NCBI GenBank assembly: GCA_963701665.1
Contig: OY969622.1
Coordinates: forward strand, 416,001 to 480,000
Direction: 5' to 3'
From: Candidatus Babeliales bacterium
Lineage (GTDB): Bacteria > Babelota > Babeliae > Babelales > JANWKD01
DNA length: 64,000 bases
The notes under the pieces were generated by a model. That model was given only the letters and a program-made list of their open reading frames with translations, was not told the origin of the DNA and ran no database searches. This document shows, in pieces, positions 6,067 through 26,970 of this stretch. Within the stretch, counting starts at the first letter, position 1, and each line of letters starts with the position of its first letter. Position numbers and translations under genes: made by a program.

Positions 6067-6177
6067 GTCATTCTGAGGAGCGAAGCGACGTAGGAATCCA
6101 GAACTTTAATAAGTTCCTTTATGAATTAATTTTATAGACTGGATTGCTACGCCCATCGTAGATGGGCTCACAATGAC
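6067..6177 (+). repeat. REP-like palindromic doublet (GTCAT...ATCCA / TGGAT...ATGAC)
   Basis: GTCATTCTGAGGAGCGAAGCGACGTAGGAATCCA, AT-rich spacer, then inverted unit ending CAATGAC; recurs in window. Confidence 0.9.
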
Positions 6178-12945: not shown

Positions 12946-13013
12946 ATGTTTTTATTATTTTCTTATTAAAGTTATCTTTTTTTTCTAATAGTATACTAAA
13001 GATGGTGACGAAT

Positions 13014-13047
13014 GTCATTCTGAGGAGCGTAGCGACGTAGGAATCCA
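13014..13047 (+). repeat. single REP-like unit
   Basis: GTCATTCTGAGGAGCGTAGCGACGTAGGAATCCA, 1 mismatch to the 6067 unit. Confidence 0.9.
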
Positions 13048-13087
13048 GTCTTTTGTATAAATCCTTTATAAAAACTCTGTTATTGTG

Positions 13088-13580
13088 ACTTACGCAGTCA
13101 TGCGGGCCTCATGTCGGCCAGGCACAAGGTATTTTGTGCGCCCAAAATACCTTGAACAAAAGGGCGCCAACGTTCCGTTGGATTACTCCCGCTCGGCATG
13201 AACCACTCCATCATTGATGCTTCGCATCAAGATTCCAGATTCATGAACTCGCTATCGGATCCTCATTTAACAGAATTGTCATTGCGAGCCCTGTTAAGGG
13301 CGTGGCAATCCAGATAATAAAATTAGTTCCTTGAAATAAGGTTATATTAAAATTTTGGATTCCTACGTCGCTTCGCTTCTCAGAATGACAATACTTATAT
13401 TGTAAAAGTCATGTAGCGCGACAAGCTCAAAATCATGATGCGCAGCATCAATGTTTTTGAGTGCGCATTTCGCGCGGGAGAAAGGTCCAACAGAATGTTG
13501 GCGCCCTTTTGTTCAAGGTATTTTGGGCGCGCAAAATACCTTGTGTCTGGCCGACATGAGGCCCGCATAACTGCGTAAGT
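13088..13580. repeat. composite palindrome with ~150-bp inverted arms around a REP doublet
   Basis: 13088-13182 vs reverse complement of 13486-13580 is 90/95 identical; similarity continues to 13234/13431. Confidence 0.9.
13278..13389 (-). repeat. REP-like palindromic doublet
   Basis: GTCATTGCGAG..GTGGCAATCCA, spacer, TGGATTCCTACGTCG..CAGAATGAC. Confidence 0.9.
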
Positions 13581-22718: not shown

Positions 22719-22871
22719 ACATGATTCCCAATTTTTATTTACAGATTAGTTGTTATAAAATAACAAAAATGTTTCTGTTCTACAAACTGACAACAATACT
22801 ATAGAGGTTGATTAGCTGAGAGAATCCATAGAAATATCCAGTGCGCATGGAAATATGCTTAGGGAAATGTT

Positions 22872-22960
22872 GTCATTCTGAGACAACGAAGTTGTCGTAG
22901 GAATCCAATCTGATAAGGATTTTCATTTTAAAGACTGGATCCCTACGTCGCTATGCTCCT
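22872..22960 (+). repeat. REP-like doublet interrupted by IS110 (continues at 24160-24168)
   Basis: GTCATTCTGAG..GAATCCA, then TGGATCCCTACGTCGCTATGCTCCT | CAGGATGAC after the IS. Confidence 0.9.
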
Positions 22961-22974
22961 TGTATGTTAAAACA

Positions 22975-23184
22975 AAAAGCATTTAAGAGTAAATTGTGAT
23001 AATTTAAGAATGAAATATTGTTTAATATCGGTTGTTTGAGAAAAGCTGATAGATCTCGTCACGCTCCTGGTTTAGAAGAACCGTTCCTGAGTTTGAGACT
23101 ATCAGCTTACACAAAATTACCTCGAACAATCACTAGAGACGTATTAGGTATACGATCTCGTATGTTTACAAGGCTGAGGTATTT
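22975..23184 (+). ncRNA. predicted IS110 bridge RNA
   Basis: two stem-loops with internal loops carrying target guides (ACGCTCCT, TCCTGAG) and donor guides (ACAATCACT, TACAAG); 5' end estimated from the junction promoter. Confidence 0.85.
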
Positions 23185-24126
23185 ATGAAAAACATAGCAG
23201 AAGTATATGTAGGTGTCGATATTTCAAAAAATAATCTCGATATTTATGTGTATCCTATAGGAAAATTCTTTAAAGTAGCTAACTCAGAAGTTGGCATACA
23301 GAACATAATCAAGGAATTAGCTCACTATCAAGTTACACAAATTGCCTGTGAAGCAACAGGTGGCTATGAACAATTACTTGCCCAATTACTCAAAAAGAAC
23401 CGATATTCACTTTGGATCGTTGATCCACGAAGGATAAAAGCTTTTATTATAGCTACTGGCTGTAAAAGTAAAACCGATAAAATTGATGCTAAAAAAATTG
23501 CTGAATTCGCTTCTAAAAATTCTCCTAGTTACGAGATTGTTAACAAAAGTGAGAATCAGCATAAACTACAAGCTCTAGTTAACCGTAAAAATGATTTAGT
23601 AAAATTTTTAGCTGCTGAGAAAACACGACTTAAACATCCTTCTCACGTATTATATGTTCCTGATATAAAAAGATTTATTGCACTCTTAGAAAGTGAAATT
23701 AAATCAATTGAGTCTCGAATACAGGATTTAGTCAAAGATGATGAAGAGTTACATACAAAATCAAACATTTTGGAATCAATCCCAGGAATCGGTAAAGCTA
23801 CAGCTGCAACATTACTTTCTTTTGTCCCTGAGCTTGGGCAGTTAAGCGACAAAAAAATATCCGCTCTAATTGGTGTCTGTCCTTATGACAATGAAAGCGG
23901 CAATTACAAAGGCAAAAAATTTATTAAGCATGGCAGGCATATTCCTCGTAAAGCACTTTATATGTGTGCATTGACCACGGTAAAGCACCATCTTCCTTTA
24001 AGGGAATTTTACCAGCGATTAATGGATGCTAAAAAACCTTTTAAAGTAGCTATCGTTGCTATTATGCATAAGCTCATTATAATTGCCAATGCTCTATTAA
24101 AAAGGGGCGAGTTATGTAGAGCTTGA
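23185..24126 (+). CDS. IS110 recombinase/transposase (DEDD RuvC plus Tnp domain)
   Basis: VGVDISK, CEATGGY, KTDKIDA, SIPGIG, NESG. Confidence 0.95.
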   Translation: MKNIAEVYVGVDISKNNLDIYVYPIGKFFKVANSEVGIQNIIKELAHYQVTQIACEATGGYEQLLAQLLKKNRYSLWIVDPRRIKAFIIATGCKSKTDKIDAKKIAEFASKNSPSYEIVNKSENQHKLQALVNRKNDLVKFLAAEKTRLKHPSHVLYVPDIKRFIALLESEIKSIESRIQDLVKDDEELHTKSNILESIPGIGKATAATLLSFVPELGQLSDKKISALIGVCPYDNESGNYKGKKFIKHGRHIPRKALYMCALTTVKHHLPLREFYQRLMDAKKPFKVAIVAIMHKLIIIANALLKRGELCRA

Positions 24127-24229
24127 CTATAAAAATATTTGACTTTTAACACAATCACTCAGGATGACATCCACCAGTTTAAAATGTTACTTTGCTAATG
24201 CTTATGCTCACTATGGGCAGATACATTAC

Positions 24230-24586
24230 TTACAGTAATTCGCGTATTTTTAATAATTTTTGTCGGAGTTCAATAAGTTGTTCAACGGATACTGAAAGCA
24301 CGTTTGTTTGGTTTGACTCCATCGTAGTTTTTGAAGCGAACAAAGCGTGATTTTTTCCCAATTTTAATGCCTCTTTTGCACCCGCTATGGTAAACTTTTT
24401 TTCATAGAGAAGTTCTTTAATCTTACTGAACGTTTTTAGATCTTTTTCTTGATAGAAGCGCTGGCCACCTTCTGAGCGCGAAGAATGTACATTGAATTCT
24501 TTCTCCCAGAAGCGAATTACAAAGCGTTCAACGTTGAGGTGTTGTGCAAGTTCTCCAATACGAAATTGTCGTTTGTTCATTTTCAT
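24230..24586 (-). CDS. MerR-family HTH regulator
   Basis: FRIGELA..VIRFWEKEF..GGQRFY..LLYEKKFTIAGAK. Confidence 0.88.
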   Translation of the reverse strand: MKMNKRQFRIGELAQHLNVERFVIRFWEKEFNVHSSRSEGGQRFYQEKDLKTFSKIKELLYEKKFTIAGAKEALKLGKNHALFASKTTMESNQTNVLSVSVEQLIELRQKLLKIRELL

Positions 24587-26863: not shown

Positions 26864-26970
26864 GTCTTCCCGAGGAGCGAAGCGACGTGGGGATCCAGAA
26901 CTTTAATAAATCCTTAAGGAATTAATTTTATAATCTGGGTTGCCACGCCACATACGTGGCTCGCAATGAC
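26864..26970 (+). repeat. REP-like palindromic doublet
   Basis: GTCTTCCCGAGGAGCGAAGCGACGTGGGGATCCA ... TGCCACG..CTCGCAATGAC. Confidence 0.9.

Follow-up and report, generated by a model that had tools for sequence, protein, structure and literature searches.

A compact IS110-group insertion sequence of Candidatus Babeliales likely moves by bridge recombination into a host hairpin repeat

The closest described systems are the bridge recombinases IS621 of E. coli and ISCro4/IS622. The locus described here resembles them in its recombinase domain pair, catalytic residues, long left end with a putative two-loop RNA, and CT core (PMC11208160, PMC11208158, PMC13626964, 10.1101/2025.05.14.653916). 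It is also like them in its predicted junction promoter, four guides, handshake logic, and insertion into a dispersed palindromic repeat. ISPpu10 is an IS110-family enzyme that inserts in Pseudomonas REP hairpins (10.64898/2026.03.19.712850); both host and repeat differ here. The IS110-type integrase of the Neisseria prophage Nf1 inserts at CT and targets dRS3, which is part of the NTS/CGTC class (PMC7058167), and is therefore a precedent for an IS110-type enzyme that targets this class of repeats. Nf1 moves a phage genome, whereas the element studied here, a minimal IS, has another host and another repeat.

The window, a 64,000-nucleotide stretch of a Candidatus Babeliales genome, contains on its + strand an IS110-group insertion sequence of 1,199 bp including one CT core (Table 1). 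Its two neighbours, murC and a gene of the MerR family, lie on the − strand. The left end is 224 nt long versus 33 nt for the right end, and a 5-bp inverted repeat surrounds the donor. In the published pattern, sub-terminal inverted repeats measure 2–3 bp in the IS110 group and 7–17 bp in IS1111. Because its left end is the longer and its inverted repeats are short and sub-terminal, the element is assigned from its sequence to the IS110 group and not to IS1111. CT is present at both ends of all three genomic copies and once in empty sites, as expected of scarless boundaries with a dinucleotide core common to donor and target. Joining the ends would give a sigma-70-like promoter, TTGACT-17-TATGTT, predicted from sequence, and relatives have the same layout. 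A linear promoter scan of 22800–24300 returned 7 sites versus 6.0 expected, none of them on the + strand of the left end. An internal promoter is thus without support.

Table 1. Features of the element and its insertion site (window coordinates).
Feature	Position	Strand	Basis
First hairpin of the ~100-bp repeat dimer hosting the insertion (TGTC...CCA unit)	22871..22907	+	Sequence
Interrupted 34-bp host hairpin, left part; left target 22952–60, CT core 22959–60	22936..22960	−	58-match family
IS110-group insertion sequence	22961..24159	+	Three genome copies, zero differences over span
Right donor half 22961–65; predicted −10 box TATGTT 22963–68; 5-bp sub-terminal inverted repeat 22966–70 (partner 24146–50)	22961..22970	+	Circle-junction sequence
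Leader segment complementary to 23121–23131 (left donor guide and 5′ strand of the donor stem)	23030..23040	+	Predicted folds, shuffle comparison
Predicted target-binding loop	23043..23108	+	Structure covariation, guide-target covariation
Target-loop parts: outer stem; left target guide 23060–68; inner hairpin 23069–82; right target guide 23085–91; handshake guide 23092–93			
Predicted donor-binding loop: left donor guide 23126–34; inner hairpin; right donor guide 23164–72; handshake guide 23173–74	23118..23181	+	
IS110 recombinase gene, 313 aa	23185..24126	+	PF01548, PF02371, NF033542
Right end: predicted −35 box TTGACT 24139–44; inverted repeat 24146–50; left donor and core 24151–59	24139..24159	+	
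Interrupted host hairpin, right part (right target 24158–64, TGTC-tagged end)	24160..24169	−	

The reading frame carries an N-terminal DEDD RuvC domain (PF01548) together with a C-terminal domain that bears the catalytic serine (PF02371). The protein passes NCBIfam NF033542 (202.5 bits, cut-off 140) and matches the solved chains of IS621 (E 1.5e-35) and ISCro4 (E 3.3e-37). It is distant from both (E about 1e-35 to 1e-37), and at 313 aa shorter than their chains of 328 and 341 aa. Residues D12, E56, D98, D101 and S238 align with D11, E60, D102, D105 and S241 of IS621, whose catalytic residues are named in PMC11208158. With an open frame and all DEDD/Ser catalytic residues in place, the recombinase appears to be intact.

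Deletion of 22961–24159, which leaves one of the two CT dinucleotides at 22959–60 and 24158–59, restores a 34-bp repeat unit as the initial annotation had proposed. This unit has 3 genomic matches at up to 2 mismatches and 35 at up to 6. A profile search identified 58 units, 55 empty and 3 interrupted, which make up 0.15% of the genome, and none in a locally shuffled genome. Most matches (53/58) lie outside ORFs, and 5/58 have their midpoints inside. The repeat begins with TGTC or CGTC in 55/58 cases and ends with CCA in 57/58, inverted dimers occur, and the stem is interrupted with a loop of about 12 nt. The ~100-bp dimer that hosts the insertion is also found empty at genome positions 217769, 267691 and 689385. 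CGTC-tagged REPs (PMC3733652) have the same TGTC/CGTC end, CCA tail, inverted dimers and mostly intergenic location; their families CGTC-1 to 4 have an 8–9 bp stem and a 4–5 nt loop, whereas the loop is longer here. The repeat is rare in relatives, with 1–5 matches each in 4/60 genomes versus 33 in this one. The GTAG-tagged REP, the class targeted by IS621 and associated with RAYT, was rejected because the ends are TGTC/CGTC. The genome has 7 Y1-transposase matches. Three identical tandem Y1-transposase frames with 566-bp spacing lie at genome C1:1253004–1254495, and two more identical copies lie elsewhere.

At genome position 955302, a GIY-YIG gene of 97 aa with a single domain is bracketed by inverted copies of the repeat, and one copy lies beside a second such gene. 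A repeat copy was found within 700 bp of 2/8 small GIY-YIG genes, where the chance expectation is 5.8% for each. Ssn-related motifs of the NTS with the SsnA nuclease have the same layout, with inverted copies flanking a small GIY-YIG gene (PMC11893778). The SRM pattern published there matches 0/58 repeats strictly and 6/58 with a relaxed loop, and the GIY-YIG proteins gave only a below-cut-off match with NCBIfam. The repeat appears to work like an SRM, of which it is a putative member set apart by the pattern mismatch, and the nuclease is a candidate for the Ssn subfamily (CDD cd10448). The REP-like repeat of the initial annotation is a dispersed hairpin and not a GTAG REP of the IS621 kind, having a TGTC/CGTC tag and a CCA tail and flanking a small GIY-YIG gene. 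The eight small single-domain GIY-YIG genes (including L207, genome C1:955259–955649) fall into two sequence types, one flanked by TGTC-tagged hairpins and the other by GC-rich repeats that resemble the target family of an element in the same-genus genome G001, described below. Mosaic, BIME-like clusters of several hairpin repeat families occupy window 12990–13480, and more hairpin clusters or dimers lie in intergenic DNA at 6067–6100 and 26864–26950.

Three copies of the element, identical over 1,199 bp, are present in the 1.34-Mb genome, each at the same CT of the host hairpin. Copies A and B have about 90 bp of left flank in common, both lying in the same type of repeat dimer, and the flanks of copy C differ. 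A and B are likely independent insertions. The public run X6 also holds near-identical pieces of the element. One X6 contig (depth 2.4) covers 24015–24169 and then continues for 92 further letters. The 30 letters compared are identical to a stretch present once in the genome, behind the repeat copy at 217769–217802 that is empty in the assembly. This contig appears to represent a fourth insertion site at the same CT, seen at its right junction alone, and thus an insertion polymorphism. All three genome copies and the X6 junction are thus at the same hairpin CT. Viral contigs gave 0 matches to the donor-loop motif, and the 2,688 matches of a plasmid search were all below 60% identity.

The region 23041–23184 is predicted to fold into two stem-loops with internal loops (z = −3.98; 0/200 shuffles as good). 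The strands of the two stems given in the initial annotation (23043–52/23099–108 and 23118–23/23176–81) are exact reverse complements, although the full extent of the first is longer, 23043–58 with 23094–108. Its guide segments were also read correctly: 23061–68 is ACGCTCCT, 23085–91 is the reverse complement of CTCAGGA, 23126–34 is identical to 24151–59, and 23167–72 is the reverse complement of CTTGTA. Pairing of the left target guide is likewise present, but the canonical 9-nt guide 23060–68 has 2 mismatches and not the 1 that had been counted. In the alignment of relatives 95% of cells are paired and 9/31 pairs show a compensatory change, a level reached by 0/500 shuffles and far above slid controls; the donor outer stem is without compensatory change. 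An Rfam search across the element matched no family. The leader, where a 5′ accessory stem-loop would be expected given an assumed start site, is divergent among relatives and weakly folded, and the fold predicted with the full leader breaks the donor-loop stem. The 3′ strand of that stem overlaps a likely ribosome-binding site, GAGG (23176–79). Unlike IS621 and ISCro4, the element has another target and repeat class, a leader complementary to a donor guide, and no spacer base after the left target guide. A one-base spacer is present there in 8/11 of the close types defined below, and its absence here counts against the bridge reading. A conserved 5′ stem-loop was not found in the divergent leader, for which the start site is assumed.

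To examine guide-target covariation, element ends were called solely by their end motifs, and guides by anchors inside the RNA. Near-full-length recombinases were found at 176 loci. The end layout of the element marks the ends in 49 of these loci, in which both ends could be parsed, and 21 at ≥55% identity gave 11 close types. The nearest named relative locus is from Candidatus Babeliales (59% identity), and the close clade consists of same-order genomes and metagenome contigs. In the close types the left guide matched at 51.3/77 positions (permuted mean 27.6), the right guide at 47.7/55 (permuted mean 20.6), and positions 12–14 alone at 27/33 (permuted mean 13.4). A held-out set of 38 rows, 35 distinct, was drawn from 70 sources searched. 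Here the left guide matched at 144/196 positions (permuted 83.9, 28 types), the right guide at 70/85 (permuted 26.4, 17 types), and positions 12–14 at 38/51 (permuted 15.2, 17 types). In the held-out alignment the donor outer stem is one column off and mis-parsed rows were kept (for example L103, L113, L004 and L005), which lowered the scores; the relatives are kin, and hence permutation p-values overstate. The donor guide also tracks a C-to-T donor change in L206/L189. Thus the homologue comparison proposed in the initial annotation shows guides tracking insertion sites in both sets. The 7-nt right-target match was not new as had been supposed, longer right target guides in some orthologues having already been reported (PMC11208160) and positions 12–14 matching in the held-out elements too.

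Two elements are exceptions. In L012, one of five G001 copies, the right guide matches and the left matches at 1/7, and this copy appears to be a natural off-target insertion. In L017 the right guide matches the flank at just 2/5 positions. About 23 bp of right flank is repeated upstream of the element in L017 and L191, which were possibly rearranged after insertion. Other relatives vary in arrangement. L195, L204 (G073) and L116 have a TT core instead of CT, with guides changed to match. The right donor is altered in L192/L203 (G253). L186 (G114) carries a tandem duplication of the left end's first 18 bp and so has two right-donor sites. L222:1377–1700 (G068) is a truncated relative that retains the left end and bridge RNA, with the recombinase gene broken after about 30 codons. 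The relative L105 (43%) has a complete bridge-RNA-like sequence 3′ of the recombinase gene (1195–1323), whose left target guide matches the left flank, and its left end holds a degenerate target loop. The downstream RNA may belong to a tandem copy or may have been relocated.

The handshake bases were compared in the same way. In 11/11 close types (permuted mean 6.3) and 21/26 held-out types (permuted mean 11.0), the base that follows the right donor guide complements target position 7. The second handshake base showed no covariation (1/11 close types). In this element the handshake bases form 0 Watson-Crick pairs before exchange and 2 after, versus one and three in IS621.

Three identical copies and a fourth junction, the covariation, the handshake base and the junction promoter sequence all agree with the initial annotation, which had described an IS621-type bridge system that is intact and directed at a repeat of the host. 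We conclude that this intact IS110-group element very probably moves by IS621-type bridge recombination into the host hairpin. Expression, circles and catalysis are here inferred from IS621. By that analogy, rare excision would join the element ends into a circle; cut-out versus copy-out excision is disputed for IS621 itself. The circle junction would complete the sigma-70 promoter TTGACT-17-TATGTT and so drive both RNA and recombinase. The left-end RNA is predicted to fold into target- and donor-binding loops, whose four guides, as the covariation suggests, would specify a target (CACGCTC-CT-CAGGA) and a donor (ACAATCA-CT-TGTAT) of 14 bp each. A tetramer would then pair donor and target, with strand exchange at CT. 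The gain of handshake pairs upon exchange, a step to which the covariation also points, would favour insertion. The insertions observed fall on the CT of a hairpin that is dispersed and for the most part intergenic, and the repeat may serve as a multi-copy safe site.

The match between guides and sites is imperfect. No perfect 14-nt match to the guides was found in the genome. At up to 2 mismatches from the programmed target, 8/12 empty sites are inside the hairpin repeat, in favour of the bridge reading. Mismatches number 2, 2, 3 and 4 at the occupied sites and are confined to positions 1–3 and 11–12 (the X6 left half being taken from the assembly), with position 1 unmatched at every one. Since IS621 tolerates mismatches poorly, the mismatches count against the bridge reading. 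Guide pairing could be necessary and yet insufficient, as reported for ISPpu10, if hairpin shape contributes to the choice of the repeat or if selection removes genic insertions. We regard this as an appreciable though unlikely alternative. All 4/4 occupied sites are in the repeat, 16/42 empty sites with an equally good seed match lie outside it, the left target coincides in part with a small hairpin that has its variable loop opposite the guide positions with mismatches, and ISPpu10 is a precedent (10.64898/2026.03.19.712850). However, the empty sites of relatives rarely fold more stably than shuffles (in only 4/21 were at most 3/60 shuffles as stable), a single unit folds weakly as DNA (−0.7 and −1.0 kcal/mol), and at n = 4 the pattern is accounted for equally well by selection in a genome that is 87% coding. 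That the element is dead or dormant, its copies arising from host recombination or duplication and its guide matches being relics of past activity, is very improbable. The left flank that A and B have in common would fit such a history, as would the lack of a circle junction in 8 public runs, where no single piece spans both ends. Coverage in these runs was patchy, an RNA run gave 0 contigs, and such blanks weigh neither for nor against activity. It is at odds with three copies identical over 1,199 bp, an open frame with all catalytic residues, the unrelated flanks of copy C, and a fourth site that is occupied in X6 and empty in the assembly.

The overlap between donor stem and ribosome-binding site raises a further possibility, additional to bridge recombination, that the transcript has two states. 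Leader 23030–40 would pair with the left donor guide, break the donor stem and free the ribosome-binding site (an mRNA state); without the leader, or when bound by recombinase, the transcript would take the bridge RNA fold with translation off. Predicted folds that include the leader contain an 11-bp leader-guide helix, and with the leader the predicted donor-stem probability of this element falls from 1.00 to 0.00 as that of an open site rises from 0.00 to 0.63. In 8/13 close types the duplex outperforms shuffles, in an alignment with the one-column flaw noted above, the donor stem drops by more than 0.2 with the leader in 9/13, and one compensatory change is found on the L188/L189 branch. 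Yet the duplex occurs in just 3/23 distant types and is weak or absent in the paralog D and in L017, and only 5/13 types beat 19/20 shuffled leaders. Even under a scoring biased toward it, the guide window is the best partner in 6/14 (best of 9 windows). The start site is an assumption, and common descent might have kept the motif for some other reason. We consider such a switch rather doubtful; a literature search found no published account of a leader-based mRNA/guide switch.

Bridge recombination as the preferred reading is extended by sibling elements. A fourth element in the genome, D (L014, C1:534758–535939), has 69% amino acid identity, the same donor and donor guides, and another target loop. 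This loop matches its own site (left 7/7, right 4/5), a member of a second palindromic family of which 8 copies are empty; window 13405–13466 holds a copy of that family. The same-genus genome G001 has five copies of an element (75–76%) with a third target loop, four of them in a third repeat that has 10 matches in G001 and 12 in this genome. A single clade (support 96/90) unites A and D with the element of G001. These sequences indicate that changes in the target loop retarget siblings to other host repeats as the donor stays constant, and from their common donor A and D could cross-mobilise. A wider picture, in which a Babeliales-centred IS110 clade combines the two-state leader switch and a fixed donor with target loops hopping among hairpin families and siblings that could cross-mobilise, is improbable as a whole.

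The new target specificity claimed in the initial annotation did not stand. In Supplementary Data 2 of Durrant 2024 (PMC11208160), GCTC-CT-CAGG occupies the same core position in 14 natural targets, which lie in similar hairpins. Of these, 13 have the following A and so agree with positions 4–14 (11/14 bases), and 7 match positions 3–14. Those hairpins mostly end in ...GATGAGG versus ...GATGACA here. The RNA motifs of this element are absent from the searched parts of the same supplement, and other parts of it may include the element itself or one closely related to it. No paper was found that names both IS110 and Dependentiae. The element is thus likely a fresh instance of the RNA-guided mechanism described in 2024 and not a new kind of system.

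For bridge-recombinase screening the element is an additional ortholog, compact, AT-rich and, it appears, active in the recent past. If the leader switch is true, it would be a layer of self-regulation, and the practical rule would be to trim the leader when expressing such RNAs. Finally, the three sister elements appear to form a natural retargeting series: they have a single donor, three target loops and, for each element, a host repeat of its own. Such a series makes guide evolution and cross-talk between siblings directly testable.
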